Shown: positions 4,970 through 41,005, counted from the stretch's first letter. The stretch: DNA of 64,000 nt from Desulfobacterales bacterium (GCA_018399235.1 JAGYOX010000001.1:646-64645); one strand, 5' to 3'. Numbers and translations: made by a program. Notes: generated by a model from the sequence alone, not told the origin.

Positions 4970-7222
4970 ATGCAGGAATATGAGGAACTAAAATCTAATC
5001 TTCAGGGGGTTAACCAGACCCTTTGTGAATTAATGGGGCAGGCCAAAACGGTTCCGGCGGCGTCGGATCAAATTTTTGATGAATGGGAGACCGCCTGCCA
5101 TAAGATCGCCGGGCAGCTTGAAGACGACCTGGTGCGGGTGGCCGTGGTGGGTGCCATAAAATCCGGCAAGTCCACCATGATAAACGCGATGTTGAGCGGT
5201 GATTTTTTAAAGCGCGGGGCCGGTGTGGTCACCTCCATGGTCACCCGGTTAAGGCGTGGGCCGCAAAATAGGGCGCAGCTGTATTTCAAATCCTGGGACG
5301 AGGTCAATAGCGATATTCAAAGGGCGCTTGTGTTGTTTCCGTCTTCGGACTGGCGTAGCCTGAAGGATTCGTTTGATATCCGCCGGGAGACCGATCGGCA
5401 GGAACTGGAAGCCGCGCTTAAGAATCTTTCCACCCGGGACTTGATCACCAATGATACACGGAATTTAAACAGCCTTTTGCTTTTATCCTATCTGGAAGGC
5501 TATGAACGGGTTAAAGATATTATCGGTGAGGACAATGTTATAAAAGAGTTTACCGGCGGGCAATTTGCCGCCCACCAGGAGTTTTCAGGCAACGACACGC
5601 TGGCCTTTTATCTGAAGGATATCGCCCTTGAGGTGGATTCAGAAAACATTATACCCAATATTGAGATCGCCGACTGCCAGGGCAGCGACTCTCCCAATCC
5701 CTTACATCTCGCCATGATTCAGGACTATCTGCTCTCCGCCAACCTGCTAATATATGTAATCAGCAGCCGCACCGGCATTCGCCAGGCGGATATCAATTTT
5801 CTTTCCATGCTCCGCCGGATGGGATTTATTGAACAGATCGTTTTTGTTATTAATTTTGACTTTAATGAGCATGACTCCCCCGATGATTTGAACCGGCTAA
5901 TCGCCAGAATCAAAGAAGACCTCCGGATGGTCCGGAAAACTCCGCAGATCTATACGTTTTCCTCCTTGTTCAGCCTGTTTAAGTCTATCGCCGGGGAGCT
6001 TTCCGACAAGGACAGTCAGCGGTTTGACCTATGGAAAAAGGAACAGGAGCTGGTATCGTTTTCCGAATCCGAGGAAGAAAGATTCATGCGCGCCTTCCAT
6101 GAGATCGTCACGAGCCAGCGCTATTCGATCCTGTTTAAAGCCCCGGTGGAGCGGCTTCAAATGATTACCAACGGCATATTGAAATGGTGCCGGATGAATC
6201 GGGATGTGCTGGGTAAAGGTTCGGAAGAATCCGCCCAGCTGATAAAGAAAATAAAGGCCGAGCAGAAACGGCTCAACCGGGTGCAGTCCATGATCAAGAG
6301 TACGGTTGAGGGAACCCTCCAGCAGATCAAGCGGGATCTTAAAAAAGATGTGGATGGCTACCTGGACCCGAAGTATGGCGAATTGGTCGCCCCGATCATT
6401 GAGTTTGTTAAAAACTATTCCATCTCAGCGGAGCGATACTCAGAGCAGCTGGCCGGCGGCCGGTTCTCTGATGCATTATATGCGGTATTTCAGGAATTTA
6501 CTCATGAGCTGGACGCATACATGGCCGAAACGATCAACCCGAAAATATTTCATTTCATCAAAACCGAAGAGGACCGGATCAAAGAGTATTTTGAATCAAT
6601 TACCGGCCCCTATGAGGCAATGGTCAATGACGCCATGGCCCAATACAACGCCGTGTTAAACAATCTGGGGCTGGAAACGGTTGATGAAAACTCTCATGAA
6701 ATATCCTTGCCGGATTTTCAGGCCCTTAAAAGGCAGCATGGCCTTGAACTCCCGCCGGCCGCCACCACCATGAATTACAGCAAGGCGATAAAGACCGAGG
6801 CGGTCATGCGTTTTGGCATGTATAATCTGGCCAACCGGCTCAGGCGCCTTTTCCGCCGGCCTGCGGGCAATTCGGTAAAAGAGGGGCATGCGGCGCTCAA
6901 GACAGCGGTAAAGCGGCTGAAGCGGGAGACCGAGGAGGGCATCTCGTTTCAGTTTAAAAATTACAAGGAAAACATTAAATTTCAGTATCTATTCACATTG
7001 GTGGATGCGGTTTCAGCACAGCTGTATGAGGAGATCATGAACCGGTTTCATGATTTTACCAATGGGCTGGTGGAGTTAAGCGAGTTTGCGGGAAAGCATC
7101 AGCTGGATGGCACGCATCTGGTCAACCAGTTGAATGATATGGCTTCAGTGGCCGTAGAGCTTGAAGGCCGGCTCAAGGAGATTGCGTTGGAGGTTAAAGG
7201 CACTGAGGGAAAAAGGCACTAA
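4970..7222 (+). CDS. Bacterial dynamin-like GTPase (large, soluble-type)
   Basis: 750 aa. Dynamin-type G1 VAVVGAIKSGKSTMINAML near residue 60, a DxxG-type motif (IADCQG), and a long helical C-terminal stalk-like region. The last about 8 codons and the stop lie inside the GGCACTRA repeat. Confidence 0.75.
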   Translation: MQEYEELKSNLQGVNQTLCELMGQAKTVPAASDQIFDEWETACHKIAGQLEDDLVRVAVVGAIKSGKSTMINAMLSGDFLKRGAGVVTSMVTRLRRGPQNRAQLYFKSWDEVNSDIQRALVLFPSSDWRSLKDSFDIRRETDRQELEAALKNLSTRDLITNDTRNLNSLLLLSYLEGYERVKDIIGEDNVIKEFTGGQFAAHQEFSGNDTLAFYLKDIALEVDSENIIPNIEIADCQGSDSPNPLHLAMIQDYLLSANLLIYVISSRTGIRQADINFLSMLRRMGFIEQIVFVINFDFNEHDSPDDLNRLIARIKEDLRMVRKTPQIYTFSSLFSLFKSIAGELSDKDSQRFDLWKKEQELVSFSESEEERFMRAFHEIVTSQRYSILFKAPVERLQMITNGILKWCRMNRDVLGKGSEESAQLIKKIKAEQKRLNRVQSMIKSTVEGTLQQIKRDLKKDVDGYLDPKYGELVAPIIEFVKNYSISAERYSEQLAGGRFSDALYAVFQEFTHELDAYMAETINPKIFHFIKTEEDRIKEYFESITGPYEAMVNDAMAQYNAVLNNLGLETVDENSHEISLPDFQALKRQHGLELPPAATTMNYSKAIKTEAVMRFGMYNLANRLRRLFRRPAGNSVKEGHAALKTAVKRLKRETEEGISFQFKNYKENIKFQYLFTLVDAVSAQLYEEIMNRFHDFTNGLVELSEFAGKHQLDGTHLVNQLNDMASVAVELEGRLKEIALEVKGTEGKRH

Positions 7223-7416: not shown

Positions 7417-7451
7417 TAACCATAAACCTTATACCTTATACCTTGCACCTT
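7417..7451. repeat. Degenerate heptamer array (YYTWAAC/CCTTATA type)
   Basis: taaccataaaccttataccttataccttgcacctt. Same family as the arrays at 13627-13822, 16091-16186, 20849-20981, 21277-21378, 24791-24872 and 58332-58373. Confidence 0.8.
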
Positions 7452-7473
7452 GGGTTACCCGGAAGGAGGCAAA

Positions 7474-8259
7474 ATGGCGAAAAAATCAACCCGGATAGTT
7501 GCCGTGGCTAATGAGAAGGGCGGGGTCGGTAAAACAGCCATGGTGATCAATCTCGGGGCGGCTTTGGTAAAAGACGGCAAAACCGTTCTGATCGTGGACA
7601 TGGACCCCCAGCATAATGCAACGAGCGGGCTGGGTATAGATGTTACGGATGAAATGGCCAGTGTCTATGATTTAATCAGCGATGAGGGCGGGGGGGCGGT
7701 TGATGATGTTCTCTGGTCGACCAAATGGCCTGGACTGGATGTTATCGCCTCGCATCCGGATCTGGCCGGGGCTGAAGTCGAACTGGTTGATGCAGAAGAG
7801 CGGGAGGACAGATTAAAAAATGCGATTCAACCCCTAATCGATAAATACGATGTTGTCATCCTGGATACACCGCCAAGCCTCTCTCTTTTGACAATCAATG
7901 TATTTTCCTGCGCAAACGAAGTGCTGGTGCCGTGCCAAACCCATCCCTATTCGTTCAACGCCCTTGAAGACCTTTTCGATACCATTGGAGCAGTTCAGGA
8001 AGGAATCAACCCGGAGCTAAAGATCACCGGGCTGGTCCCCACGTTTTTTGATCAGCGTCTCCGGGTGTGCCGGGACATCATGGAGCGGCTAAAGACCGAT
8101 GAACGTTACCAGGGTTTGCTTTTTAATACGATTATCCGTTCCAACATCACCATCGCGGCCAGCGCGGAGACTGGAAAACCTGTCGTGTTCTATCGCACGG
8201 GGAGTTTCGGCGCCAAGGATTATACCAGCCTTGCCCGGGAATTCATGATGGCAAAGTAA
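7474..8259 (+). CDS. ParA/Soj-family ATPase (orphan, no parB adjacent)
   Basis: Deviant Walker A NEKGGVGKT. ATG at 7474 preceded by GGAAGGAGG. The ORF-track TTG start at 7450 lies inside the repeat array and is less likely. Confidence 0.85.
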   Translation: MAKKSTRIVAVANEKGGVGKTAMVINLGAALVKDGKTVLIVDMDPQHNATSGLGIDVTDEMASVYDLISDEGGGAVDDVLWSTKWPGLDVIASHPDLAGAEVELVDAEEREDRLKNAIQPLIDKYDVVILDTPPSLSLLTINVFSCANEVLVPCQTHPYSFNALEDLFDTIGAVQEGINPELKITGLVPTFFDQRLRVCRDIMERLKTDERYQGLLFNTIIRSNITIAASAETGKPVVFYRTGSFGAKDYTSLAREFMMAK

Positions 8260-8481: not shown

Positions 8482-8553
8482 TGTCATTTCGAGCGGCAGC
8501 GAGAAATCTTTAACAAACAAGATTCCTCGTCGCTTTCGCTCCTCGGAATGACA
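8482..8553. repeat. Inverted-repeat element (module B), TGTCATTTCGAGCG...CTCGGAATGACA
   Basis: 72-nt element with complementary ends. Further copies at 13533-13603 (opposite orientation) and 21145-21215; half copies at 38264-38305 and 22724-22772. Confidence 0.85.
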
Positions 8554-8688: not shown

Positions 8689-9291
8689 ATGGAGGGTGAG
8701 CCAAGGACGCGCGAGGCTCTGGTTCAGGCGGCGGTTAACATATTTCAGCAAAAAGGGTTTCAGATGACCCGGGTTTCGGATATTGTTGCGGCCGCCGGAG
8801 TGTCTCAGGGCACGTTTTATAATTATTTCCGGTCCAAGGAAATCATTTTCCGCGAGATATGCAACGATTTCATGGAGCAGGTCCGGGAACGCTTTGTTGA
8901 ACGGACCGAGCACATGTTTGACGGCGAAACCTCTGATGAGGTCAGAACAAACCTGCATACCGTTATTCGGGATGTCTTTGCCATCTATCAGGAAAATCTG
9001 GCGGTGGCTGAACTGCTTTTCCGTGAGGGAATCGGAAACGGAGGGCTCTTTAAAGAGATCTATGAGGGTATTCTGAATCTGTTTTTGGAGCTGATTCGGG
9101 AGCAGGTTGAAAAAGGGATTGAAAAAGGATTTCTTGACATTGATGATCCGGAGATGGCTTCTGTATTTCTGTTCGGCCTGTTTGAACGGGCGTTATTCTA
9201 TTATTTGTTGGTCCGGAAGGAGATGGACTCGGATAAATTGGAAAACGGACTGGCGGATTTTATATTAAAGGGCCTTTCCTTTAAAGAATGA
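8689..9291 (+). CDS. TetR/AcrR-family transcriptional regulator
   Basis: 200 aa. N-terminal HTH FQMTRVSDIVAAAGVSQGTFYNYFRSKE typical of TetR_N, with an all-helical C-terminal ligand domain. Confidence 0.85.
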   Translation: MEGEPRTREALVQAAVNIFQQKGFQMTRVSDIVAAAGVSQGTFYNYFRSKEIIFREICNDFMEQVRERFVERTEHMFDGETSDEVRTNLHTVIRDVFAIYQENLAVAELLFREGIGNGGLFKEIYEGILNLFLELIREQVEKGIEKGFLDIDDPEMASVFLFGLFERALFYYLLVRKEMDSDKLENGLADFILKGLSFKE

Positions 9292-9296
9292 CGGCC

Positions 9297-9911
9297 TTAT
9301 CCCTTCATCGCCGCTTCGCATATATCCCGAACCGTTGGAATCGAAAACCCTCGTCGTTTCAGAAAGCTATAGATTTTCCGGCGGCATTCCATTTCCTGCA
9401 AATCTTGCCAGTTTTCCAGTTTTGGGGCAATTGCGGCCCATGCGGCGGCATGCTCATCATAGTTGGTTAATGCGTCTTCAATAATATCTTCGCTGATTCC
9501 TTTTTGTTTTAATTCATAGGTTAGGCCGAATATGCCGCGGGGACGATGCCTGAGGCGGTTTTCAACCCAGAGACGGGCGAATTCGGTGTCGTTTATATAT
9601 TCATAGGATTCAAGCCGTTGAATGGCATTTTCAACCGCTTCCGGTGAAAATCCTTTATTATTCAAGTATTGATCGATTTCCTGGCGGCTGCGCGGCCTGA
9701 TGGCAAGATAGGAAACCGCCCGTTGAAAGGCTTTGTCTTTCTCGTTCAGGTATTTTAGCTCATCTATTCGGGACTGGGAGATGGAATCGCCTTTTTTAAG
9801 GCTGCCAGCCTCCCAGAGGGGAAGGGAAAAGCTATATCCCCCATTGATATAAACATTGACCCGGTCTTTTCGGTTTTTCTGAAGCTCAATCGCGGTAATG
9901 ATATTATTCAT
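9297..9911 (-). CDS. recX: RecX-family regulatory protein
   Basis: 204 aa. Threefold helical repeat pattern with RPRSRQEIDQYL...GFSPEAVENAIQRLESYEYINDTEFARLWVE...GIFGLTYELKQKGISEDIIEDAL, typical of RecX. Starts 5 nt after the stop of the upstream dynamin-like gene. Confidence 0.75.
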   Translation of the reverse strand: MNNIITAIELQKNRKDRVNVYINGGYSFSLPLWEAGSLKKGDSISQSRIDELKYLNEKDKAFQRAVSYLAIRPRSRQEIDQYLNNKGFSPEAVENAIQRLESYEYINDTEFARLWVENRLRHRPRGIFGLTYELKQKGISEDIIEDALTNYDEHAAAWAAIAPKLENWQDLQEMECRRKIYSFLKRRGFSIPTVRDICEAAMKG

Positions 9912-9916
9912 AGTTA

Positions 9917-11428
9917 CTAGAACTTTGTCGATTCTGTGATTGCGTAAGGATCTTCAAACGTGTCCGGTTCAGGCGGCTCTTCTTCAGTATGGTAGTAATA
10001 GAGGGGTTTGGATGAATCCTCGATAACCGATTCCCGATCATACTCGATATTGGCCAGTTCGTTCAATGCTTTCCTTATTTCCCGGGTGCCTTCTTCATAG
10101 ACCCGGTTGACTTTTATGTATTCCTCTTTAACCTTATATAAGGGAAACCGGCCGTTGGACTTTTGAAGATACGCATAGACAAGGTCCCGCACAGCCTGCC
10201 AGCTGTCTCGCCGGGTCTGCGTATCAAGAGAAATCAACTGATCGATATTTTTCAAGTAGTTTCGGTGAAACGCCGAATGAATATAGCGCATGGGCATTAT
10301 CATCCAGAAAATCAGGAACAGGATCACAACACCGACACCGCCGGTTAATGCCACCGGATCGATTAACCCTCCGAATATTCCGGCACTCAATCCGCCAAAA
10401 ACCGCCGCCCCTCCTGCCAGGATACCGATGAGAAATCCTAACAGACCGAATTTGAGACGGAATCTGCGGAGCCGGGTTCGGTAGCTTAAAAGGGCTTCGA
10501 GAAAATGGTTCAGGCGTTCCGCATGGGTTTCAACAAATGTCGCCATATTGTCCAGCCGATGCCTGGGCGCCTGCAGGACAGCGGTTTTTAGCTGTTTGCG
10601 CTGGTTTTCCAATAGATATAAAAAGTTATAACTTTCATCGGTCTGATAACCACGATTCTGAGCGGCCCTTGAGGAATAGGTGAGATGGATCGGCGGAATA
10701 TCTTTTCGGCCGGTAATCTGTGAGAGGTTCCAGCAAAGGGTGCCATAGACCTGAAGCAGATCGTTCAAGGAGGCGCATTCGTCAATCCGGTTCAATATAT
10801 ACAGAACCCGGTCTTCATAGGTTCGTCTGGCAATGGTTTCCCTGAGGCTGGTATGCGCCTCCCTGACCGTTCCAGCTTTATGGGGGTCGAAAAGGACCAG
10901 AACCAGGTCAGCCAGATGGGCCAGGTCACCGATAATTTCCTGGTAGTTATACCCCCGGTCCCGTTCCGTGACACTGTCAAGCATGCCGGGCGTATCGATT
11001 AGGGCCAGGTTTTTTAAAAACGGGGAGTTGACTTTTTTCAGTCGGAAATGGGCCGCAAATCGCTGCCCATGTTTTTTAAGGATCTCAAAAGGATATTCCG
11101 GGTCATTGAGTAGAAATTTTCCGTCGCGCTGCTCCGTGGTCCGTATGTCTTCCGTATCAGGAACCGTCCCGTCGTATGTGATAATCGTAAACGAGTCATC
11201 CGTGGGGGCCTGGCCGATTGCCTGAATATCAGCCCCCAGAAATTCATTGATCAACGTGGATTTGCCGGATGAATAGTTGCCAAGTACCAGCACCATGGGC
11301 CGCCATTTGATCGTTGTTTCCAGAGGGACGTCACTGTATCCGTATTCCTGGGCGATCCTTGACAACTGGGTCTCCACCATGGAAACCATTTCAGCGCGCA
11401 GCGAATTGATATAGTTTTCCTGATACAT
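9917..11428 (-). CDS. Membrane-anchored dynamin/EHD-like GTPase
   Basis: 503 aa. G1 VLVLGNYSSGKSTLINEFLG, G3 LIDTPGM, G4-like LNRID. A Gly-rich hydrophobic hairpin (FGLLGFLIGILAGGAAVFGG...VVILFLIFWMIMPM) lies at about residue 325-380. GAGGAG RBS; starts 20 nt after the cheB stop. Confidence 0.75.
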   Translation of the reverse strand: MYQENYINSLRAEMVSMVETQLSRIAQEYGYSDVPLETTIKWRPMVLVLGNYSSGKSTLINEFLGADIQAIGQAPTDDSFTIITYDGTVPDTEDIRTTEQRDGKFLLNDPEYPFEILKKHGQRFAAHFRLKKVNSPFLKNLALIDTPGMLDSVTERDRGYNYQEIIGDLAHLADLVLVLFDPHKAGTVREAHTSLRETIARRTYEDRVLYILNRIDECASLNDLLQVYGTLCWNLSQITGRKDIPPIHLTYSSRAAQNRGYQTDESYNFLYLLENQRKQLKTAVLQAPRHRLDNMATFVETHAERLNHFLEALLSYRTRLRRFRLKFGLLGFLIGILAGGAAVFGGLSAGIFGGLIDPVALTGGVGVVILFLIFWMIMPMRYIHSAFHRNYLKNIDQLISLDTQTRRDSWQAVRDLVYAYLQKSNGRFPLYKVKEEYIKVNRVYEEGTREIRKALNELANIEYDRESVIEDSSKPLYYYHTEEEPPEPDTFEDPYAITESTKF

Positions 11429-11448
11429 CCGTTATCTCCTCTTTGTGT

Positions 11449-12519
11449 TCAAGCTTTTGGCCTCGCCTTTTTACGCATGCGGGATACCATGCCCATCAAC
11501 AGATCGGCGATTTCTGCCGGTGAAAGTATGTAATTGGCGGCATCAAGCTTGATCGCGGATTCCGGCATGCCAAAGACTATTGAGGTTTCCCGGTTCTGCA
11601 CCATGGTCTGCGCCCCGCATCGCTTCATCTCCTTTAAACCCGAGGCCCCGTCATTTCCCATGCCGGTGAGCAGTATGCCTGCGGCTCGGGTGCCATAACA
11701 CTTAGCCACAGACATAAACAAATGGGAGGCCGGCCGTTTCAGTTGCCCTTGGCTGCCGAATTTTGTGATAAGAACTTTTCCATCCTTAGAAATAGCCATA
11801 TTGCTTTCCTCAGGGGCAAAATATACATGGCCGGGAAGCAGTGCGTCTCCAGTTTTAGCAATCTTGAGATTAAGTCGGGTTTCACCGCTGAGCCATTTCA
11901 ACATGCCCGGCAGAAAGCCGGTGGTAATATGCTGAACCACAACAATTGGCACCGGGAAATCTGACGGCAGCTCCCTGAAAATCTCTTGAAGCACCGGCGG
12001 GCCTCCGGTTGAGGCCCCTATGGCGATGACATCAATGTTAGTCAGATTTTTTGTTTTAAGGATTTGAGACGAAGGTCCTGCGGGTTGTTTTCTCGGCTTT
12101 GGGGGAACCCGCCGCACCACCTTGACCTCTGCCATCAGTTTAATCATGCGAAGGAGTTTCTCCATAAACGGTTTGGTTTCAGGATTACCAAGTCCCGGCG
12201 GCTTTTGGGCCACGGCGACTGCTCCGGCCTGCATGGCTTTAAAAATATTTTGGGTCTGTTCAGGGGCAACCAGGGAGCTGTAAATGATGATAGGTAACGG
12301 TCGGGTTTCCATGATCATTCGAGTTGCTTTGTACCCATCCATACCGGGCATGTGGATATCCATAATTACTACATCCGGTATGGCGGATTCAACCAGCTTA
12401 ATCGCCTCGTTACCGTTTTGGGCGGCTCCGACCAGCCGCAGATCCGGATCCTGGTCGATGATATACTTAATGTATTCTCTTGCCGTTAAAGAGTCATCAA
12501 CAATAAGGACATTGATCAT
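11449..12519 (-). CDS. cheB: Chemotaxis response regulator protein-glutamate methylesterase CheB
   Basis: N-terminal receiver (VLIVDDS...DIHMPGMDG) plus a C-terminal methylesterase domain with AIGASTGGP and VVQHI motifs. Confidence 0.9.
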   Translation of the reverse strand: MINVLIVDDSLTAREYIKYIIDQDPDLRLVGAAQNGNEAIKLVESAIPDVVIMDIHMPGMDGYKATRMIMETRPLPIIIYSSLVAPEQTQNIFKAMQAGAVAVAQKPPGLGNPETKPFMEKLLRMIKLMAEVKVVRRVPPKPRKQPAGPSSQILKTKNLTNIDVIAIGASTGGPPVLQEIFRELPSDFPVPIVVVQHITTGFLPGMLKWLSGETRLNLKIAKTGDALLPGHVYFAPEESNMAISKDGKVLITKFGSQGQLKRPASHLFMSVAKCYGTRAAGILLTGMGNDGASGLKEMKRCGAQTMVQNRETSIVFGMPESAIKLDAANYILSPAEIADLLMGMVSRMRKKARPKA

Positions 12520-13451
12520 AAGGACGTTCCGATGGTCAGGTTGCGACCATTTTGCTTGGCCTGGTAGAGGCTTTGGTCGGCCGCATTGATCAAATCCTCG
12601 GCGGTTAAACCCTTTGAAGGAGTTTTATCACAAACGGCTGCAATGCCAAAGCTGGAGGTGATTTGGATCGTACCCTTGTCTGTTTTGGTCTCCAGTTTTT
12701 CGATCAGTCCTCGAAAACGCTCAGCCGCTGCCTTGGCGCCATCCAAACCCGTCTCCGGCAGGACAAGGATAAACTCCTCACCCCCGTAACGGGCAATCCA
12801 GTCCAAGTCCTTGCGTAACGCGCGGCTTAGGCAGTTCGCAAACGATTTTAAAACCATATCGCCGGTTTGATGCCCATACTGATCGTTGACGGTTTTGAAG
12901 TGATCGATATCGCTGATCACAATCGAGAGGGGGGAGGCGTAACGCTGGGCCCGTTTGAACGCCTTGGGCAGGTTTTCATTTAAATATCCCCGGTTAAAGA
13001 CCCGCGTCAAGGGGTCTGTGATGGATAAAAGGGCGATTTCCTTGTTTCGCTGCTTCAGGGAGGATTCCAGCGAAATGATGCGCTCCGCGGTTGTCAACCG
13101 GGCGATCAGTTCGGCATTATCCACCGGCTTGGTCAGGTAATCATCCGCGCCTGCCTCCAACCCCTCGATAATATCATTTTTGGAGTTTTTGGCTGTCAAC
13201 AGGATAATATATACATACCCGCCGAACTCATGCTTTCTGATGGCGTGGCATAATTCCGAGCCGTCCATTTCTGGCATCATCCAGTCGGTAATGACAATGG
13301 AAATCGGTCGATTCAATAACATCGTCATGGCTTCCAGCCCGTTTTTGGCCATGGCCACCTGATAACCGTGATTTTCCAGCATCAGCTTGAACTTCAGGGC
13401 CTGTGTCTGGCTGTCTTCAACCAGCAGGATTTCAAGCGGTTTTTTTAGCAT
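12516..13451 (-). CDS. Response regulator with GGDEF output (diguanylate cyclase, WspR-like architecture)
   Basis: 311 aa. REC (ILLVEDS...TDWMMPEMDG), a coiled linker and a GGDEF domain with RYGGEEF. 4-nt overlap with the cheB start. Confidence 0.85.
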   Translation of the reverse strand: MLKKPLEILLVEDSQTQALKFKLMLENHGYQVAMAKNGLEAMTMLLNRPISIVITDWMMPEMDGSELCHAIRKHEFGGYVYIILLTAKNSKNDIIEGLEAGADDYLTKPVDNAELIARLTTAERIISLESSLKQRNKEIALLSITDPLTRVFNRGYLNENLPKAFKRAQRYASPLSIVISDIDHFKTVNDQYGHQTGDMVLKSFANCLSRALRKDLDWIARYGGEEFILVLPETGLDGAKAAAERFRGLIEKLETKTDKGTIQITSSFGIAAVCDKTPSKGLTAEDLINAADQSLYQAKQNGRNLTIGTSL

Positions 13452-13532
13452 GAAGGAATACTTTCTAAAAAACTTAATAATATATATTTATTCCATAAGG
13501 TTAAAAAGCTAACTTTCCGAGGACCTTTTTTT

Positions 13533-13603
13533 TGTCATTCCGAGGAACGAAAGTGACGAGGAATCTTGTTTATAAAGATTTCTCGCTAACGCTCGAAATG
13601 ACA
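13533..13603. repeat. Module B inverted-repeat element (opposite orientation)
   Basis: tgtcattccgaggaacgaaagtgacgaggaatcttgtttataaagatttctcgctaacgctcgaaatgaca is the reverse complement of the 8482-8553 type with a few substitutions. Confidence 0.85.
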
Positions 13604-13626
13604 AGTGCCTGACACTAATGATTCAG

Positions 13627-13822
13627 TACCCTAAATAAACCTTAAACCTTACACCCAACACCCTAAACCCTAAACCCTAAACCCTAAACCCTAAACCCTA
13701 AACCCTACACCTTACACCCTAAACCTTACACCTTACACCCTAAACCTAAACCCTAAACCCTAAACCTTACACCTTACACCTTACACCCTAAACCTTACAC
13801 CCTAAACCCAATACCTAAAACC
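13627..13822. repeat. Heptamer tandem array, about 28 units, including six consecutive perfect CCCTAAA units
   Basis: ccctaaaccctaaaccctaaaccctaaaccctaaaccctaaa at about 13661-13703, flanked by CCTTACA/CCCTAAA variants. Lies between the cheA stop (13826) and the REC-GGDEF start (13451). Confidence 0.9.
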
Positions 13823-13825
13823 CAT

Positions 13826-16081
13826 TCATATAAGCCGGTCAAGGACTTCAAGAAGATTGCTTTGGTCGAAACTGCTTTTGACGATGTAGGCGTCAGCTCC
13901 GGCTTCTAATCCCCGTTCGCGATTTTTTGCCGAATCTAGGGTAGTTACCAGAATTATTGGCAGCGCGGCAAGAGATTTATCCGCCCGAATGCCGGCAGTG
14001 AGCTCGAACCCATCCATTCGAGGCATTTCAACATCAGATATCACCGCATCAAAACCCTCGGATTTAAGCCGGGATAAACCGTCTGTCCCGTCAATCGCTG
14101 TTTTTACTTGATATCCCGAGGCTTCGAGAATGTTTTTCAAAAGCGTTCGGGAGGTGAATGAATCTTCAACAATCAAAACGGATTTTGGCCTTTCGGCATG
14201 CTCGGAATCGTCCGTAGCCGGCTGGTCGATCGATAAGGATTGACCGGAGGCAGTTTCTATAACTTCCTTGACATTCAGTATCGGCACCACCTGCCCCGTA
14301 ACAAGGATCGTGGCGCCTGCAATATGCCGTACCTTTTTTAGCTGTTTACCCAAAGGCTTGACCAGAACTTCCTGCTCGTTGATGACCGCATCAACGCAGA
14401 AGGCGATCTGCGTTGCCCCGTTCTCCATAATGACTGCCGGTATTGCTTTTTTTTCAAAACGCTTGTTTCTGAGTTTTGATTTTGGCAGGCCCAGAACATC
14501 TGTCAGATAAACCAGGGGCAGGGGGCGGCCGTTAAATGAGATAATCGTCTGGTTTTCTGCGGTTTTGATGGTTTCCGGCCGGATTTTCAGGCTGTGGCGC
14601 ACTTGCGCGGTCGGCAGAATGAACAAAAGCCCGGAAATTTTAATCAATACACCCCGAAATGTGGCCAGGGTCACCGGCAGTTTGATGGTAAAAACCGTGC
14701 CCCGACCGGGTTCGGAGTATATGCGCATCCGGCCGCCAAGATGATCCAGCGAGTCCTTTATGATTGACATGCCCAAGCCCCGCCCGGAAATTTCAGTGAT
14801 CATGGCGCTGCTCGATATGCCTGAATTAAAAATCAGGTTTAATGCGTCTTCCCCTGATAGAGCCGCCGCATCGTCAGCAGAAATCATTCCTTTTTTGACT
14901 GCATCGGCTTTAATGGCTTCAATATTTATTCCTTCTCCATCGTCGGCAACCTCAAGGTTTACTTGGTTGCTTTCCGGCTGGGAAACCGTGACCCGGATGG
15001 TACCCATGGCCGGTTTTCCCTGAGACCTTCGAATTTCAGGGGATTCAATGCCGTGGTCGACGGCATTTCTCAACAGGTGCGTGAGGGGATCTTTCATGCC
15101 CTCAAGAATGCGTTTGTCGATTTCAACGGTTTCGCCGGCAGTTTTCAGATCAACGGATTTTCCCCGGTCTTTGGCGATTTCCCGTACCATACGGGGAAAA
15201 ACGGTGAAAAGGGTTGAAAACGGCATTAGCGAGGTTTTTTTGGTTTCATCCAGCAGATCATCAATCAACCCGCTGAAGTTTCGATTGCTTTTTTCAAGGG
15301 TCGCTGCGGTTTGCTTCATCTGCTGGTCGGCGTCATGGATAAAATCCTGGGTGTCCTCAATGAACTCGATCGTTCGATCAATTGCCAATTCAGGATCTTG
15401 TAGGTTTTGATGCCTGCGGAAGTCCTTCTGAAAGTGTTCCCATTTTTGTTTCCAGTCCTGAAAAGAATTATTCAGGTGCTGTATTCGGTTTAAGTGCTGA
15501 GAGGCCGATTGTTTAACCGGAATCAGCTCCTCTGTTTTTAAGAGCAGGGCGTCCAGCTTATCGGTCGGAATCCGGACGGATGAGGCAAATAGCGGCTTGG
15601 TGGTCTGTTTTTGCGTATCCAGATGTTTTTCCGGGACTTTATCGGATGCATCCTCAGTGGGCTTTTCTTCGGGGCGGGTGCGTGACGTAACATCCGTTAA
15701 AGATTGAACCATGTCTTTGATATCCCGCGAGATCTCTTCAGCGTCCGCCTCCGGTGCGACGGATTTTTCAATGAGCTGGGTGGCGGCATAGAGCGCATCA
15801 AAAAGATCGACGGAAAAGGCGAGGGTCTGATCTTTAATTGAGGCAAAGATGCTCTCCATTTCCTGGCAGAGCGATTCGATTACCGGAAGGTTGACCGAGC
15901 GGGCGGCGCCCTTTAAGCTATGGGCTTCCCTGAAGACGGACTCTAAAATCTCTTCCGGCAGTTCGCCTTCGTCCATATCTTTTTCAAGACTGGACAATCC
16001 GGAATAGAGTGCCTCGATGCGTTCCCGGGTCTCATCTTGAAATGCTGCGAGCAGCTGTTTCTGTATTTCGTTTTCGTCCAT
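13826..16081 (-). CDS. cheA: Hybrid chemotaxis histidine kinase CheA with C-terminal receiver (WspE/FrzE-like)
   Basis: 751 aa. Hpt with FREAHSLKGAAR, a dimerisation and HATPase_c core (GRGLGMS, G-x-G boxes), a CheW-like domain and a C-terminal REC (VLIVEDS...SDVEMPRMDG). Confidence 0.9.
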   Translation of the reverse strand: MDENEIQKQLLAAFQDETRERIEALYSGLSSLEKDMDEGELPEEILESVFREAHSLKGAARSVNLPVIESLCQEMESIFASIKDQTLAFSVDLFDALYAATQLIEKSVAPEADAEEISRDIKDMVQSLTDVTSRTRPEEKPTEDASDKVPEKHLDTQKQTTKPLFASSVRIPTDKLDALLLKTEELIPVKQSASQHLNRIQHLNNSFQDWKQKWEHFQKDFRRHQNLQDPELAIDRTIEFIEDTQDFIHDADQQMKQTAATLEKSNRNFSGLIDDLLDETKKTSLMPFSTLFTVFPRMVREIAKDRGKSVDLKTAGETVEIDKRILEGMKDPLTHLLRNAVDHGIESPEIRRSQGKPAMGTIRVTVSQPESNQVNLEVADDGEGINIEAIKADAVKKGMISADDAAALSGEDALNLIFNSGISSSAMITEISGRGLGMSIIKDSLDHLGGRMRIYSEPGRGTVFTIKLPVTLATFRGVLIKISGLLFILPTAQVRHSLKIRPETIKTAENQTIISFNGRPLPLVYLTDVLGLPKSKLRNKRFEKKAIPAVIMENGATQIAFCVDAVINEQEVLVKPLGKQLKKVRHIAGATILVTGQVVPILNVKEVIETASGQSLSIDQPATDDSEHAERPKSVLIVEDSFTSRTLLKNILEASGYQVKTAIDGTDGLSRLKSEGFDAVISDVEMPRMDGFELTAGIRADKSLAALPIILVTTLDSAKNRERGLEAGADAYIVKSSFDQSNLLEVLDRLI

Positions 16082-16090
16082 GTGGAAAAA

Positions 16091-16186
16091 GGTTTAGGGT
16101 ATAAGGTTTAAGGTAAAAGGTCCAAGGTAAAAGGTTTAAGGTATAAGGTTCAAGGTAAAAGGTTTAAGGTTTAGGGTATAAGGTTT
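16091..16186. repeat. Heptamer array, G-rich on plus strand (GGTTTAR/GGTAAAA/GGTATAA units)
   Basis: ggtttagggtataaggtttaaggtaaaaggtccaaggtaaaaggtttaaggtataaggttcaaggtaaaaggtttaaggtttagggtataagg. Lies between the MCP stop and the cheA start. Confidence 0.9.
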
Positions 16187-16263
16187 TTAGCTATTCAACG
16201 AAATTTGTATGGCCAATGTAGCGGAAGGCTTTAGCCTTCCAGAAGATCCCGGCTGCGGTCGCA

Positions 16264-18231
16264 TCATACTTTGTAAATTGACGTAATATCCCGCATGGTT
16301 TGGGCCAGATCCTCGAGCCCCTTGATCGCGTCTTCCAGTTGCTTAACCCCTTCCAAATTCTGCTGGGTCGCATCATTGATGCTCTCCATAGCCTCTGATA
16401 ACTGATCAATCCCTGACTGCTGCTGTTGGTTTGAAGCGGTTATCTGAGAGGCGGCATCCGAGGATTCATTAACCTGGAGTTCCAGACGATCGATGGCATT
16501 TCCAGCCTGTTCGGCCAGCTCAATGGCCTCCTCTACCGTTTTAGTCCCGCGTTCCGTGGCCATAACTGCGGCGCTGGTGGCCTTCTGAATATCATTCAAA
16601 ATCGCCCGAACCTGGTTTGTCGCCTCCTTGGACTGGTCGGCCAGGGATTTTACCTCCTGGGCGACCACGGCGAATCCTTTGCCTTGCTCCCCGGCCTTGG
16701 CCGCTTCGATTGAGGCATTAACCGATAGAATATTGGATTGATCGGCAATATCAGTAACCGTATTGATAATCTCTTCAATGCTTTTGCTCTGCTCACTGAG
16801 TTTGACCGTACTTTCAGCGATATAGGTCATTTCCTCCTTGATGCGGTTGATGCCGGCCATTGTATTTTCAGTGGCCTGCTTGCCGGCAATGGAAATTTTA
16901 GTCGTATTTTCAGCACTTTTAGATACATGTTCGGCTTTTTCGGTAGCCAACTGGGATGTCTGCTTGACCTCTTCAACGGTTGTGGTGACCTCGCTGATGG
17001 AGCTTGAGGTCTCTGAGGCGCTTGAGGAGAGTTGAGAAGCGGTTGTTGAGATCTGACTGATGGAAGAGAGCAGGTGGCGCGAGGACTGCCCCAGCTGCTT
17101 GATCTGCTGCCGGAATCTCTGGGTGCCGCTGGCAAAGGCCTTCATCAACATGCCGATCTCGTCTGAGCGCTTTTTTTGGTGTTCGGGTACGGCCAGGGTG
17201 AAATCGCCCTCATCCATCATCATGACCCGGTAGGAGAGGGAATTGATCGGACGGGCAATCATTTTGGACTGGAGATAGCCCATGCCGGCAATCAGGATCA
17301 GAAGAACCAGGCCGGTCCAGAGAATATTCCCCCCCAGCTTATGCAGCAGGCTGAAAGCCTCCGAGGAGTTGATTTCACTTATTATCGCCCAGTCAAAATC
17401 CGTTCCGAGCCGTTTTTTCAAGCCCAGGTTGTCATAAGCGGAAAGAACTTCGACATCTCGATAGTTCTTCAACTCCATGATACCGGCTTTACTGTTCAGC
17501 GCCTGTTCAACAGCCGGAGTCCGGATTTTTTTCTTTAAAAGAACCCCGTTTTCTAAGAAAAGGGCTTCCGAGCGCATAAGGTGGTCCTCGCCCACCAGAT
17601 AGGTCTCACCAGTTTTGCGCATACCGGTTCTGTTCTGGGTAATGGTATTGATCCGGCCGGCGTCGATCAGAAAAACCAGGATGGCCTTCAAACCTCCGCT
17701 ATCACCGTATACCGGCGCGGCCATGAACAGGCCGGGCTCCCGGCCGGGCAGGTAATTGATCATATCCGTTATTATTGGCTCTTCTGTTCTTCTGATTTGT
17801 TCGCTGATAACGGCTAGTTGGGAGATTTCGTTTTTTTTGAGAGGCTTATCCCCTTTTTGAATGGACATGTCAGCCTGATGGAGCAGTTCGCCTTTATCCG
17901 AGAGCATGAAGATGTTGCTGTAGCCGAAGACCTTCATATAGTATTCAAACAGCGGATTCATCCCCTGGTAGGTCTCATTGCTCAGCATGTTTCTGATATG
18001 TTGGGATCTGGAGAGCAGAATCAGGTTTTTCATTCGCGATTTTAAAAATTCAACCACCTGTTCCTTTTTGGTTTCGTTTACTGCGGAGAGTTGGTTGGAT
18101 GCTTCGGCTTCTATAGCGGATTGGGAGTAAAAATAGGTCATGCCGCCTAAAAGGATGAGCGGAATCAATCCGACAATAAGAAACTGGGTAATCAGTTTTG
18201 CCATGATCCGTTTGGAAAACCATCGCCACAT
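16264..18231 (-). CDS. Methyl-accepting chemotaxis protein with periplasmic Cache-type sensor and HAMP
   Basis: 655 aa. N-terminal TM, about 280-aa periplasmic domain, second TM, HAMP, and the MCP signalling hairpin SNILSVNASIEAAKAGEQGKGFAVVAQEVKSLA. Confidence 0.9.
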   Translation of the reverse strand: MWRWFSKRIMAKLITQFLIVGLIPLILLGGMTYFYSQSAIEAEASNQLSAVNETKKEQVVEFLKSRMKNLILLSRSQHIRNMLSNETYQGMNPLFEYYMKVFGYSNIFMLSDKGELLHQADMSIQKGDKPLKKNEISQLAVISEQIRRTEEPIITDMINYLPGREPGLFMAAPVYGDSGGLKAILVFLIDAGRINTITQNRTGMRKTGETYLVGEDHLMRSEALFLENGVLLKKKIRTPAVEQALNSKAGIMELKNYRDVEVLSAYDNLGLKKRLGTDFDWAIISEINSSEAFSLLHKLGGNILWTGLVLLILIAGMGYLQSKMIARPINSLSYRVMMMDEGDFTLAVPEHQKKRSDEIGMLMKAFASGTQRFRQQIKQLGQSSRHLLSSISQISTTASQLSSSASETSSSISEVTTTVEEVKQTSQLATEKAEHVSKSAENTTKISIAGKQATENTMAGINRIKEEMTYIAESTVKLSEQSKSIEEIINTVTDIADQSNILSVNASIEAAKAGEQGKGFAVVAQEVKSLADQSKEATNQVRAILNDIQKATSAAVMATERGTKTVEEAIELAEQAGNAIDRLELQVNESSDAASQITASNQQQQSGIDQLSEAMESINDATQQNLEGVKQLEDAIKGLEDLAQTMRDITSIYKV

Positions 18232-18243
18232 GTTCGACTCCTC

Positions 18244-18759
18244 TCAGTAATTATTTTGGTTGATCACCAGGTTTTCATCTTTCAGCAGCCTGTTACCGTC
18301 AAGGACGATGTTTCCGGCTTCGTCAATACCCTTGAGATAATCGGCGCGGCTACCGGTGAACGTAGGAAGCGACGGATGCAGGTCATCCGTCGAAATCTCC
18401 CGAACCCCAAGAATCTGATCGGCCAGGATGCCGAACGCCATTTTCGGGTCTGAAAGAATCAGCACATACGGGTTGTCCGGCTGCTCGTCCGCGCTAAGTT
18501 CAAACAGACGTTTCAAATCAATCACCGATATGATTTCCCCCCGCACGTTGATAACCCCGGGTATGTATTCCGGGATTCCCGGTATGAAAGTCAGCGGTCC
18601 GAGCGGGAGAACCTCACGAACAAACCGGAGTTCAATCGCGTATATTTCATCCGCCAGTAGAAAGCCGACCGTTTTAATGGCGTGTTTTTCGAAAGCCGCC
18701 TGATTTGGTTTTGCCAGCATATCCGCGCGGGCTTTAAGTATATCTTTTTCCGGCATCAA
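18244..18759 (-). CDS. cheW: CheW-like coupling protein
   Basis: 171 aa, single CheW-like domain (FLLADEIYAIELRFVREV...VINVRGEIISVIDLKRLF). Confidence 0.85.
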   Translation of the reverse strand: MMPEKDILKARADMLAKPNQAAFEKHAIKTVGFLLADEIYAIELRFVREVLPLGPLTFIPGIPEYIPGVINVRGEIISVIDLKRLFELSADEQPDNPYVLILSDPKMAFGILADQILGVREISTDDLHPSLPTFTGSRADYLKGIDEAGNIVLDGNRLLKDENLVINQNNY

Positions 18760-18764
18760 CAGTA

Positions 18765-20279
18765 TTATCCAGTCAATGATTGAACAGTTTCGAGCATCCG
18801 TGCCGCGGTCATTCCCTCAGACTGAGGGAGGACCTCTTCCGGATCTTTTGCCTTTAAAAGGGCGATGGTGTTTAAAAAGTATTTTCGGCTTTCTTCAAGC
18901 CGGTATCTTTGTCGTAATAGAACTCCCATTTGAAAGTGGGCCATGATAAAATCCGCATCCAAATAAAGGGCCCGCTTTAGGGCCCGGATCGCCGCGTCTA
19001 AATCATTTCCGGCCTGATAAATGGTTGAGAGGAGGAAATAGAGTTCAGGATTCAGCTTTTCAGATTCAATGGCCGCATGACACCAGTATTCCGCGTTTTT
19101 CAGCTCCCCGAGGTTGGCGTAGCAACGGGTTAAGAGGATCATGGATTGGGTCTGCATCAGAAACGAATTCTTCCGGAAATGACCATTTTCCAGTATTCGG
19201 CTGAGTTTTTTTGCAGCTTCGCTGTAACCGCCTCTTTCATAAGCTAAAACGGCGTTGTCATAAAGGCGATCAACTGCCGGCGGACGATTATCCCTGATAT
19301 CGGTTATCCGGCGGTTATTTAGACGGGGGGCCGGGTTCAGCGAAGCTCTTATTAATGATTCGGACTTGGCTGGTCGATCGCCGCGCCCGTGTTTTTTTCC
19401 ATGGGTTAACGGATATTTTTCCTCTTTCCTGGGAGGGCCTTTCCTAAAGAAGGTAGCATTGGCAAATCTGACCGGAGTAAGGGTTTTGGAATCAACAAAG
19501 CCGGCTTCCGCCGGTCCGGTAACCAGCCAGCCGTTATCCTCAAGCAGATCGACCAAGCAGTTGAGCACGTGCTGCCGGTTCATGGCATCGTGATACATGA
19601 GCACATTGCGGCAGAAAATGACATCCATGGGCTTTGGATATCCCAGGATTCTTTTATAATCCGGATCGGCAAAGTTTAACCGGGTAAATGCCGCCTGTCG
19701 GCGAATGCGGGGAAGCAGTTCAAACCGGTTATTCGAGTGCGGAATGAAATAATCCCTGATAATGGCATCAGGCGTTTCCCTTAGGGACCACCGGGTATAA
19801 ATGCCCTGTTCGGCAATTTTTAAAAACCGTCGATTGATGTCTGTACCGATAATGTGGATATCCCATTGTTTCAACACATCCCCCATGCGATCAATTAAAA
19901 TGGCTATGGAATAAGCCTCTTCACCGGTCGCACAGCCGGCGCTCCAGAAACGGATGGATTTTTCCCGCCGCCGGGGATATTCGATCAAGCCGCGTATAAT
20001 GTGATCCTGAAGGGTTTGAAAGATATTTTTGTCCCTCAGAAAATATGTCTCACCGATGGTCAGGCGGCCAACCAGCGGTTCCAATAGTTCGTCCGGTGAG
20101 GCGGATTCCAGAACCCTTCTGGCATATGCCTGGGGGGATTCAAACCCGGTTTCACGGGCGGCAGCCGCCACGCCTTTTACTAACAGGTTCCATTTTTTTG
20201 GGGGAAAGGAAAGACCGGTATGGGCAGCAATGAATCGGCTCAGGTCATGAAGCAATCTTTCCGGGATGGATGGGTCCAT
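18765..20279 (-). CDS. cheR: CheR-type MCP methyltransferase with C-terminal TPR repeats (WspC/FrzF-like)
   Basis: 504 aa. SAM-binding IRFWSAGCATGEEAYSIAIL, then a C-terminal ~170 aa with TPR-like A/Y/L periodicity. Confidence 0.9.
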   Translation of the reverse strand: MDPSIPERLLHDLSRFIAAHTGLSFPPKKWNLLVKGVAAAARETGFESPQAYARRVLESASPDELLEPLVGRLTIGETYFLRDKNIFQTLQDHIIRGLIEYPRRREKSIRFWSAGCATGEEAYSIAILIDRMGDVLKQWDIHIIGTDINRRFLKIAEQGIYTRWSLRETPDAIIRDYFIPHSNNRFELLPRIRRQAAFTRLNFADPDYKRILGYPKPMDVIFCRNVLMYHDAMNRQHVLNCLVDLLEDNGWLVTGPAEAGFVDSKTLTPVRFANATFFRKGPPRKEEKYPLTHGKKHGRGDRPAKSESLIRASLNPAPRLNNRRITDIRDNRPPAVDRLYDNAVLAYERGGYSEAAKKLSRILENGHFRKNSFLMQTQSMILLTRCYANLGELKNAEYWCHAAIESEKLNPELYFLLSTIYQAGNDLDAAIRALKRALYLDADFIMAHFQMGVLLRQRYRLEESRKYFLNTIALLKAKDPEEVLPQSEGMTAARMLETVQSLTG

Positions 20280-20737
20280 TATGCTGTTTCTGTCACCTGG
20301 CTGATTTGTTTAACGGTTTCCTGGGGGATCAGGTTGGCAAGCTCGTAGATAAGAACCGTTTGGCTTCCAAATGTGGCGATGCCGGATATATATTGCCGCA
20401 TCTCAGGGTAGACGGTTTCCGGATCAATCGCCGGTTCCGGCTGAAGCCGGTATACCCCCATCACTGCATCCACTGCAAACGCGGCACGATAACCGGCAGC
20501 CTCCGCTATGATAAACCGGTCTGAAATACGGATTTGTCTTCCGGTCAGACCGAACTGTTTCCGGAGGTCAACAAGCGGTACCATATCCCCGCCAATATTG
20601 ATAAGGCCTATTATCAAGTCCGGGACTTCAAGCGGATAAGTCGGTTGAACAGCCCGTACAACGCGTTCTATATCTGAACTCGCAACGGCAAAATACTGAT
20701 CATCAATTGTGAAAATAACGTAATGGGCTTCGGGCAT
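20279..20737 (-). CDS. cheW: CheW-like coupling protein (first gene of the operon)
   Basis: 152 aa CheW-like domain (FTIDDQYFAVASSDIERVV...LINIGGDMVPLVDLRKQF). 1-nt overlap with the cheR start. Confidence 0.85.
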   Translation of the reverse strand: MPEAHYVIFTIDDQYFAVASSDIERVVRAVQPTYPLEVPDLIIGLINIGGDMVPLVDLRKQFGLTGRQIRISDRFIIAEAAGYRAAFAVDAVMGVYRLQPEPAIDPETVYPEMRQYISGIATFGSQTVLIYELANLIPQETVKQISQVTETA

Positions 20738-20848
20738 TTCTAACCACTGCTGAGTGTTATCTAAGAAATTGAATTATTGTAATTATGTAACATACGCAAA
20801 ATTATGCTGTTTTTCAAGAAAAAGCTTGTACTTATGGTAAGTAACGGA

Positions 20849-20981
20849 AGGGTTTAGGGTTTAGGGTTTAAGGTTCAGGGTTCAGGGTTCAGGGTTCACG
20901 GTTCAGGGTTTAAGGTTTAAGGTTTAAGGTACAAGGTACAAGGTATATGGTATATGGTACAAGGTTTAGGGTTTAGGGTGT
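20849..20981. repeat. Heptamer array, G-rich on plus strand (GGGTTTA, GGGTTCA, GGTACAA, GGTATAT units)
   Basis: gggtttagggtttagggtttaaggttcagggttcagggttcagggttcacggttcagggtttaaggtttaaggtttaaggtacaaggtacaaggtatatggtatatggtacaaggtttagggtttaggg. Confidence 0.9.
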
Positions 20982-21144
20982 AACAAGCAAGGTTTCAGGC
21001 TTCAGCCTTCCATTGGACGCTTATTTATTTACAATTATTTCTGATTAGACTATTAAAGAAGGGCAAAAAAGGATGGCTTTGAATGAAGCGATATATAATA
21101 CAGCGATGTTTTTGCAGGAAGCAACTCAAAAAAGCCGCCCATAC

Positions 21145-21215
21145 TGTCATTTCGAGCGGTAGCGAGAAATCTTTTGCTTGAAGATTCCTCGTCGCTTGCG
21201 CTCCTCGGAATGACA
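21145..21215. repeat. Module B inverted-repeat element
   Basis: tgtcatttcgagcggtagcgagaaatcttttgcttgaagattcctcgtcgcttgcgctcctcggaatgaca. Confidence 0.85.
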
Positions 21216-21276
21216 AGGGAGAAAAGGAAAGGCCCAAAGCCTTCCGCTACATTGTCATACAAATTCCGTTAAATAG

Positions 21277-21378
21277 CCCTGAACTCTGAACCGTGAACCG
21301 TGAACCGTGAACCTTAAACCTTGTACCCTAAACCTTAAACCTTGCACCCTAAACCTTGCACCCTAAACCTTAAACCTT
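21277..21378. repeat. Heptamer array, C-rich on plus strand (inverted relative to 20849-20981)
   Basis: ccctgaactctgaaccgtgaaccgtgaaccgtgaaccttaaaccttgtaccctaaaccttaaaccttgcaccctaaaccttgcaccctaaaccttaaaccttgc. Confidence 0.9.
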
Positions 21379-21382
21379 GCAT

Positions 21383-22279
21383 ATGATAAAGCATTCAATC
21401 TGGACCAGTATCGGAATCATTTCTGCGCTTTTTTTCATAATCGCGCCTGTATCGTGGGGCGGCGAGAAATTCATTGTGGATCAGACGGGGCGGAAAATCC
21501 GTGTGCCGCTATGTCCACAGCGGGTTGTGGCGCTTGCGCCGAGTATCGCGGAGGTTATTTACGCTCTTGACTGCGAGGACCGGCTGAAAGGAGCGACAAG
21601 GTTCAGCGATTATCCCGAAGCGGCAAAGACCATTCCCAAGGTGGGCTCCTATGTATATCTGGATCTGGAGAAAATTGTGGCATTGGATCCGGATGTGTGT
21701 ATTGCGATAAAAGACGGTAATCCCAAAACAGTGGTAGATCGTTTGGAATCGCTTGGGATTCCTGTTTTTGCAGTCAACCCGAGGGACCTTTCCTCAGTTA
21801 TGAGAACTATCACGGATATCGGCCGCCTGATGGGGGTCGAAGAAAAGGCGGAAAGGATCGTTGCAAGTATGGAAACCCGGATTGAAAAAGTCGAATCAAA
21901 GGTGGCCCAAACTGATAAACGGCCCCGGGTATTTTTTCAAATCGGGATCTCACCAATTGTTTCTGCGGGCTCGGATACATTCATCCATGAATTGATTGTT
22001 AAGGCCGGCGGCCGTAATATCGCCGGCAAGTATAAATCCTATCCCAAATTTTCACGGGAAGAGGTGCTGGAGCTTGCACCGGATGTCCTGATCATCACAT
22101 CAATGGCCAGGGACGAGGTCTTTGAGCGGGTAAAAGCCGAATGGGAACAGTGGCCTCAGATTCCGGCCGTGGCGGGCGATCGGGTTCACCTGGTGGATTC
22201 CAACCTGTATGACCGGCCGACGCCCCGGCTGGTGGATGCCCTGGAGGAACTGCTCGGTTTGATACATCCGAAATTGTAG
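21383..22279 (+). CDS. Periplasmic substrate-binding protein, cobalamin/iron-siderophore (BtuF/FhuD, TroA-like) class
   Basis: About 298 aa with a signal-like N-terminus. RVVALAPSIAEVIYAL and DPDVCIA/PDVLII motifs are typical of BtuF-like binding proteins. ATG at 21383 is preferred over the TTG at 21377, which lies in the repeat. Confidence 0.75.
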   Translation: MIKHSIWTSIGIISALFFIIAPVSWGGEKFIVDQTGRKIRVPLCPQRVVALAPSIAEVIYALDCEDRLKGATRFSDYPEAAKTIPKVGSYVYLDLEKIVALDPDVCIAIKDGNPKTVVDRLESLGIPVFAVNPRDLSSVMRTITDIGRLMGVEEKAERIVASMETRIEKVESKVAQTDKRPRVFFQIGISPIVSAGSDTFIHELIVKAGGRNIAGKYKSYPKFSREEVLELAPDVLIITSMARDEVFERVKAEWEQWPQIPAVAGDRVHLVDSNLYDRPTPRLVDALEELLGLIHPKL

Positions 22280-24805: not shown

Positions 24806-24872
24806 GGTTCAAGGTTTAAGGTTCAAGGTTTAAGGTTCAAGGTTTAGGGTTCACGGTTCATGGTTCATGGTT
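24791..24872. repeat. Heptamer array, G-rich on plus strand
   Basis: gggtatagggtgtaaggttcaaggtttaaggttcaaggtttaaggttcaaggtttagggttcacggttcatggttcatgg. Confidence 0.9.
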
Positions 24873-38263: not shown

Positions 38264-38305
38264 TGTCATTTCGAGCGACAGCGAGAAATCTTTAACAAAC
38301 AAGAG
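38264..38305. repeat. Half copy of module B
   Basis: tgtcatttcgagcgacagcgagaaatctttaacaaacaag matches the left half of 8482-8553. Confidence 0.8.
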
Positions 38306-40993: not shown

Positions 40994-41005
40994 GCAATCT
41001 CCAGG

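Follow-up and report, generated by a model that had tools for sequence, protein, structure and literature searches.

Nine minus-strand genes lie between positions 20737 and 9297 of the DNA analysed here, a 64,000-nt stretch (the window; Desulfobacterales bacterium, GCA_018399235.1 JAGYOX010000001.1:646-64645, positions counted from its first letter). They comprise a chemosensory (che) gene cluster followed closely by genes for a dynamin-superfamily NTPase (the GTPase) and the RecA regulator RecX. We favor, with a probability of roughly 0.7, the reading that these are two independent modules side by side: a che pathway (20737-11449) that has been deleted repeatedly among relatives, and a GTPase-recX pair (11428-9297) that, after the loss of a spacer in the lineage of the window, is probably reached by read-through from the pathway. 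The original prediction regarded the GTPase and RecX as cargo of the chemosensory operon. This is not supported, because the pair is retained by 17 related species in which che genes are absent, and in most relatives has a promoter-like box of its own.

Mapping of the open reading frames and Pfam searches gave the nine genes, their order and domains, and the eight junctions (in order -1, 5, 12, 182, 374, -4, 20 and 5 nt) as first described; every defining domain scored above the gathering cut-off except HAMP, which was marginal. The first module encodes CheW-1 (20279-20737, 152 aa, Pfam CheW E 2e-23), a CheR methyltransferase with C-terminal tetratricopeptide repeats (CheR-TPR; 18765-20279, 504 aa, CheR E 1.3e-42, TPR matches at residues 340-454), CheW-2 (18244-18759, 171 aa, E 1.7e-29), a transmembrane chemoreceptor (a methyl-accepting chemotaxis protein, MCP; 16264-18231, 655 aa) of dCache_1-HAMP-MCPsignal architecture, a CheA-REC hybrid kinase (13826-16081, 751 aa, Hpt-HATPase_c-CheW-REC), a REC-GGDEF response regulator (12516-13451, 311 aa, GGDEF E 2e-46, REC E 3e-28), and the methylesterase CheB (11449-12519, 356 aa, REC-CheB, CheB_methylest E 4.8e-56, NCBIfam CheB 326 bits). 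The second module consists of the GTPase gene (9917-11428, 503 aa, Pfam Dynamin_N) and recX (9297-9911, 204 aa), which begins 5 nt past the GTPase stop codon. The best-matching genomes were metagenome-assembled genomes of uncultured Desulfobacterales and of Desulfosalsimonadaceae. Against the closest relative, the locus L081, the ratio of nonsynonymous to synonymous substitution rates (dN/dS) was 0.06-0.23 for all nine genes, which indicates purifying selection, and thus these are real, selected genes.

The independence of the two modules is seen in the relatives. We fetched 80 species-level loci with relatives of the GTPase, mapped all proteins of the window onto them, and divided them by a neighbor-joining tree into clades A and B. 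Every clade-A member with sufficient sequence, 40 of 40 when the window is counted, encodes RecX immediately after the GTPase; the two genes are about -25 to +45 nt apart and frequently overlap by 4 nt. In the 35 loci of clade B, both RecX and the che cluster are missing from the vicinity, and the GTPase gene is followed instead by a flavin reductase gene or by others. The che cluster is less constant in clade A: it is upstream of the pair in 21 loci, immediately so in nine and separated from the GTPase in 12, and it is absent from 17. In the che-less loci the GTPase gene follows divergent ABC-transporter genes, at a distance of 335-620 nt in seven of them, and most of the others have a divergent kinase/receiver pair in between. 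The closest relative, L081, has a GTPase 91% identical to that of the window and the identical nine-gene order, with a cheB-GTPase gap of 144 nt.

Two further observations bear on the history of this neighborhood. The identities of the Che proteins track that of the GTPase (r = 0.92-0.96), and thus the adjacency is old and vertically inherited. Furthermore, the che-less locus L004 keeps, in the 618-nt spacer between its ABC-transporter gene and its GTPase gene, two short out-of-frame che fragments (L004:9621-9844), one corresponding to receptor residues 218-258 and the other to GGDEF residues 171-205 (54% identical, E 2e-8, reading TDIDHFKAVNNQYGRQAGDQVLEFF). These fragments are a deletion scar, so that in this species the che cluster was lost and the GTPase-recX pair retained.

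In most relatives the pair is preceded by a conserved box, TTGA[CT]N-N14-TG[AG]TA, which joins a -35-like TTGACC or TTGATA to an extended -10-like TGnTA. It was found upstream of the GTPase ATG in 26 of the 38 clade-A relatives (about 31 with near variants), with and without che genes, against a background of 0.05 per kb; it lies 35-167 nt upstream of the ATG in 25 loci (for example, L018:3368-3392 and L005:6613-6637), and in L008 alone at -364. The five closest relatives all have the box or a near variant, whereas in the window the 600 nt before the GTPase gene contain no trace of it. There, the cheB-GTPase junction is only 20 nt (11429-11448), compared with 144-169 nt in L005, L081, and L002 (about 150 nt in L001), and contains a strong ribosome-binding site (AGAGGAGA). 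Other loci without the box are L021, with a gap of 16 nt, and L011 and L012, with 17 nt after a hybrid kinase gene. Since the box-bearing spacer was lost and a 20-nt junction left, read-through from cheB is the most likely source of transcripts, and in the lineage of the window GTPase and recX are probably transcribed in this way. Co-transcription of cheB, the GTPase gene, and recX, as originally predicted, is therefore plausible in this genome. The linkage itself does occur in relatives, but most of these have a promoter-like element between the genes, which the window lacks.

Anatomy, synteny, box conservation, and deletion scar were observed directly; the pattern of transcription and the biochemical activities are inferred. 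In our reading, the GTPase-recX module is a translationally coupled pair of a membrane-anchored EHD-like NTPase and RecX, normally with its own promoter-like element and conserved across Desulfobacterales families. The two modules have been adjacent since the ancestor of the clade, the che genes being deleted repeatedly while the pair persisted. A small deletion in the lineage of the window then removed the spacer carrying the box and produced a lineage-specific fusion, with similar fusions in a few other lineages.

Several points weigh against this reading. The ancient co-inherited adjacency, together with tight junctions in several lineages (the window, L021, and L011/L012), could reflect a real functional link instead of a neutral neighborhood. 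The box is promoter-like by resemblance, its designation as a promoter being based on conservation, spacing, and position, and it could alternatively be a site for a regulator; a strict sigma70 scan misses it, since the -7 position is not T. A match to a LexA/SOS site, sought in the box by eye and not with a scan, was not convincing. A promoter inside cheB is a possible alternative to read-through, and the repeat insertions within the che cluster (see below) may split the first module into separate transcripts. Finally, the class given to the che pathway below was assigned from its architecture.

The original model, in which all nine genes belong to a single functional operon and the GTPase and RecX serve as dedicated downstream components of a pathway producing cyclic di-GMP (c-di-GMP), seems to us unlikely. 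The junctions of 20 and 5 nt agree with it, and so do the 21 related species in which che genes neighbor GTPase-recX and the proteins have diverged in parallel. Tight junctions have also arisen independently in L021, L011, and L012, and GGDEF genes lie upstream of the distant clade-B GTPase genes in L070, L074, and L079. However, 17 related species, one of them with the deletion scar, keep the pair without che genes, and a separate box stands between cheB and the GTPase gene in most relatives, including the five closest. In addition, Pfam found no recognizable c-di-GMP-binding or receiver domain in either the GTPase or RecX. Another doubtful proposal is that the EHD-like NTPase and RecX make up a functional module linking membrane remodelling or repair to the control of RecA, kept near the che genes by co-regulation, its transcription having been captured in the present genome.

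It is improbable that the che cluster is decaying, that is, that repeat insertions at 16082-16263 and 13452-13825 broke the operon, which is heading for loss as in L003 and L004 and represents an arrangement without present function. Tandem arrays of (TTTAGGG)/(TAAACCC)-type heptamers fill these two gaps, of 182 and 374 nt. The first contains an array at 16087-16186, and the second a (TTTAGGG)-like array of about 25 copies (13636-13823) and a palindrome at about 13534-13602 resembling a miniature inverted-repeat transposable element (MITE). In L081, the MCP and CheA genes overlap by 4 nt, the CheA-GGDEF gap is 24 nt, and only one short heptamer array occurs in 21 kb. Because the junctions of this relative are tight and nearly free of arrays, the repeat-filled gaps are recent insertions specific to the genome of the window and not part of the operon design. 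Their absence from the closest relative, and the repeated loss of che within the clade, are what decay would predict. However, the seven che open reading frames are full length with intact catalytic motifs, and their dN/dS against L081 is 0.09-0.23. Furthermore, neither spacer contains an intrinsic-terminator-like site on the coding strand according to a generic scan, whose sigma70 and terminator counts equal those in shuffled sequence.

The repeats are not confined to these gaps. Six intergenic heptamer arrays were found in the window (13636-13823, 16087-16186, 20849-20983, 21287-21381, 24799-24872, and 58328-58374), four of them within or beside the che cluster, with units TTTAGGG or TAAACCC and variants in up to about 25 copies. 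The TTTAGGG unit is identical to the plant telomere repeat. Relatives have other heptamers, such as GATTAAG in L001 and L002. The MITE-like element, a palindrome of about 70 nt (GTCATTTCGAGCG...CGGAATGAC), is present in four copies in the window versus 0.3 expected by chance, with core matches at 8483-8501, 13584-13602, 21146-21164, and 38265-38283. It also occurs within the cheB-GTPase spacer of L005 and L081.

Taken by themselves, genes 1 to 7 encode a complete chemosensory pathway which, by its architecture, is of the 'alternative cellular function' (ACF) class in the Wuichet-Zhulin scheme. The core proteins CheA, CheW, MCP, CheR, and CheB are accompanied by a multidomain response regulator and a CheR-TPR fusion. 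CheR-TPR marks ACF-type clusters (PMC3447774), and its combination with a multidomain response regulator is typical of the class, such clusters being common in Deltaproteobacteria (PMC3447774). The cluster shares with the class the CheR-TPR, the multidomain regulator with GGDEF output, and the CheA-REC hybrid, and we see no essential difference. That the cluster is instead a chemotaxis operon for flagella or type IV pili, with the GGDEF protein as an accessory, is very improbable, for although the CheA/W/R/B/MCP core is common to all classes, Pfam found no CheY, CheZ, CheC, CheD, CheV, or Pil genes in the cluster, and CheR-TPR with a multidomain response regulator is ACF-typical (PMC3447774).

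The translated proteins retain their catalytic motifs. CheA has the HSLKG phospho-His motif in its Hpt domain and the Asp motif of its receiver, the receiver aspartates in general are present, and the GASTGG, QH, and GMGNDG motifs of CheB are intact. The receptor has transmembrane segments at residues 8-36 and about 296-326. Since its hairpin-tip Glu is residue 515, its C-terminal arm is exactly 140 aa, and its N-terminal arm starts at the end of HAMP, its signalling domain is of the 40-heptad (40H) type. By the Che/Wsp paradigm, the pathway likely works as follows. A periplasmic ligand would bind the dCache domain, and the dCache-HAMP 40H receptor, coupled via the two CheW proteins, would control the CheA-REC hybrid kinase. 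The kinase would phosphorylate REC-GGDEF and thereby lead to c-di-GMP synthesis, while CheR-TPR and CheB would adapt the receptor by methylation.

The cluster had been described as Wsp-like with a c-di-GMP output. As a functional analogy this stands: like Pseudomonas Wsp (WspA-F and WspR), it has one MCP, two CheW, a CheR with TPR, a CheA-REC, a CheB, and a REC-GGDEF protein, all recognized by Pfam, and in both systems c-di-GMP synthesis is presumably controlled by the receptor. It is, however, not a member of the Wsp family, since it differs in the order of its genes, in its taxon, in the sensor domain, and in the output regulator. Wsp clusters, identified by wspA-F synteny, have been found in beta- and gammaproteobacteria alone (PMC8552884). 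Here, the order is CheW-CheR-CheW-MCP-CheA-GGDEF-CheB rather than wspA to wspF with a terminal wspR (A-B-C-D-E-F-R), and the closest genomes belong to Desulfosalsimonadaceae and other Desulfobacterales. The receptor differs from that of Wsp in its dCache sensor. The output regulator is nearer to PleD (E 1e-60) and to a Leptospira-type REC-GGDEF structure (6zxm, E 2e-51) than to WspR (3bre, E 6e-38), the WspR PDB chains being the Pseudomonas Wsp sequences used for direct comparison, and its I-site motif is RxxxD instead of RxxD.

The REC-GGDEF protein is a predicted diguanylate cyclase and the output of the pathway. Its active site is intact (RYGGEEF), as the original prediction noted, and 14 orthologues all retain the metal- and guanine-binding residues D181/D183, N189, and D198. 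The I-site had been read by manual alignment as KDLD in the place of RxxD. This is correct in strict register, but an invariant Arg, R213, stands one residue further upstream, which makes the motif RxxxD. HMMER aligns R213 to R359 of PleD by way of a one-residue insertion. The sequence R213-K-D-L-D217 is part of LR[K/T/Q]DLDW, kept in the 14 orthologues, in which R213, D215, and D217 are invariant and position 214 is K, T, or Q. Thus, judged from this invariance and the inserted residue in the alignment, the family has a conserved, non-canonical RxxxD form of the I-site.

The GTPase consists of an EHD-like G domain (about residues 38-250), a helical stalk, and a strongly hydrophobic, predicted transmembrane hairpin (about 325-386). 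Across 39 sequences there is no variation in the G1 (GNYSSGKST), G3 (DTPG), and G4 (NRID) motifs, and these motifs, the Dynamin_N match, and the helical C-terminal half in an AlphaFold2 model place it in the dynamin superfamily. A phmmer search of the PDB gave EHD4 and EHD2 at E about 3e-26 over residues 16/38-249, versus E 4e-3 to 9e-3 for bacterial dynamin-like proteins. Foldseek, run with the model, ranked EHD4 first and EHD2 next, followed by BDLP, IniA, and mitofusins, with weak TM-scores of 0.28-0.34. The model, built from the 39-sequence alignment, has a mean predicted local distance difference test score of 66 and a poorly resolved G domain, so that the EHD assignment rests on the sequence match. 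The earlier label 'dynamin/EHD-like' is thus supported. The protein is an EHD-like dynamin-superfamily NTPase and not an EHD: Pfam found neither an EH nor an EHD-specific domain in it, and the EHD alignment stops at residue 249.

Its likeness to eukaryotic EHD2 and EHD4 lies in the G domain, including a VYGxLxWxL helix after the G4 motif. Unlike these, it is a bacterial protein without an EH domain, reads NRID at G4 where EHDs have NKAD, and has a transmembrane hairpin in the place of their lipid-binding helical tip. Like BDLP, IniA, DynA, and LeoA, it is a large NTPase that combines a helical stalk with a hydrophobic segment for membrane insertion, and, as is often the case for BDLP pairs, a second dynamin-like gene is nearby; however, the similarity to bacterial dynamin-like proteins is marginal, and the two dynamin-like genes of the window are in convergent, separate units. 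Eleos or another defense system was rejected as an identity, since PADLOC gave only weak LeoA/LeoBC matches for the two proteins (LeoA 5e-9). The family of this 503-aa NTPase has more than 1900 homologues, with a G domain far nearer to that of eukaryotic EHDs than to that of any solved bacterial dynamin-like protein. Our literature searches found no published description of a prokaryotic EHD homologue, and a recent review of EHDs is silent on prokaryotic relatives. Among prokaryotic proteins, this family may be the one most closely related to the eukaryotic EHD ATPases in its G domain.

The identification of RecX was confirmed by all three tandem three-helix repeats, RecX_HTH1, 2, and 3, at 70.5, 64.6, and 30.3 bits (cut-off 26), and by solved RecX structures, which match at E 3.5e-16 to 1.8e-5 (best 3d5l, E 3.5e-16). 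In the recA-recX(-alaS) arrangement, a protein of the same fold family is encoded next to recA, whereas recX of the window is joined to the GTPase gene. In fact, recA (41006-42055) is 31 kb away and is followed directly, after a 12-nt gap, by alaS (recA-alaS block 38354-42055, minus strand), with no recX between them. The recX gene beside the GTPase gene is likely to be the housekeeping copy, displaced from its place near recA. Literature searches found no description of a dynamin-recX linkage.

Other genes surround or interrupt the two modules. Upstream, the divergent intergenic region (20738-21376) between a periplasmic-binding-protein gene (21377-22279, plus strand) and cheW-1, which includes the heptamer arrays 20849-20983 and 21287-21381 and a MITE-like palindrome at about 21146, presumably contains the promoter of the che operon. 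A sigma70-like match is at 20817-20789, such matches being no more numerous than in shuffled sequence. Convergent to GTPase-recX, on the plus strand, are the genes of the second Dynamin_N protein (4970-7222; 750 aa, BDLP-like, soluble), a ParA/MinD-like ATPase (7450-8259), and a TetR regulator (8689-9291). This block is kept beside GTPase-recX in about 24 clade-A loci, and its dynamin-like protein may be a partner of the GTPase.

In the 12 loci where the che cluster is separated from the GTPase gene, the intervening gene mostly encodes an extra hybrid histidine kinase, with other genes in L007 and L033. This kinase (REC-HisKA-HATPase-REC(-REC), 585-735 aa) stands between cheB and the GTPase gene in one subclade (L012:7800-9983; also L006, L010, L011, L013, L014, L016, L022, L027, and L032) and is reminiscent of the WspH-type outputs found in the Wsp systems of Burkholderia. 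In several of the che-less loci, the position of the che cluster upstream of the GTPase gene is taken by a divergent PAS histidine kinase with a single-domain receiver (L018:1182-3318; also L023, L026, L028, L029, L031, L034, L047, and L051).

The che part represents one more ACF-type c-di-GMP pathway, from an uncultured lineage of sulfate reducers, which is useful but expected. The small deletion that appears to have spliced an autonomous pair onto a signalling operon is a reminder that an apparent 'operon extension' can mislead the prediction of function from gene neighborhood. The most unusual feature is the strictly conserved pairing of an EHD-like membrane NTPase with a RecX displaced from recA. 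Furthermore, the GTPase represents a large bacterial family whose G domain is much nearer to those of eukaryotic EHDs than that of any characterized bacterial dynamin-like protein.

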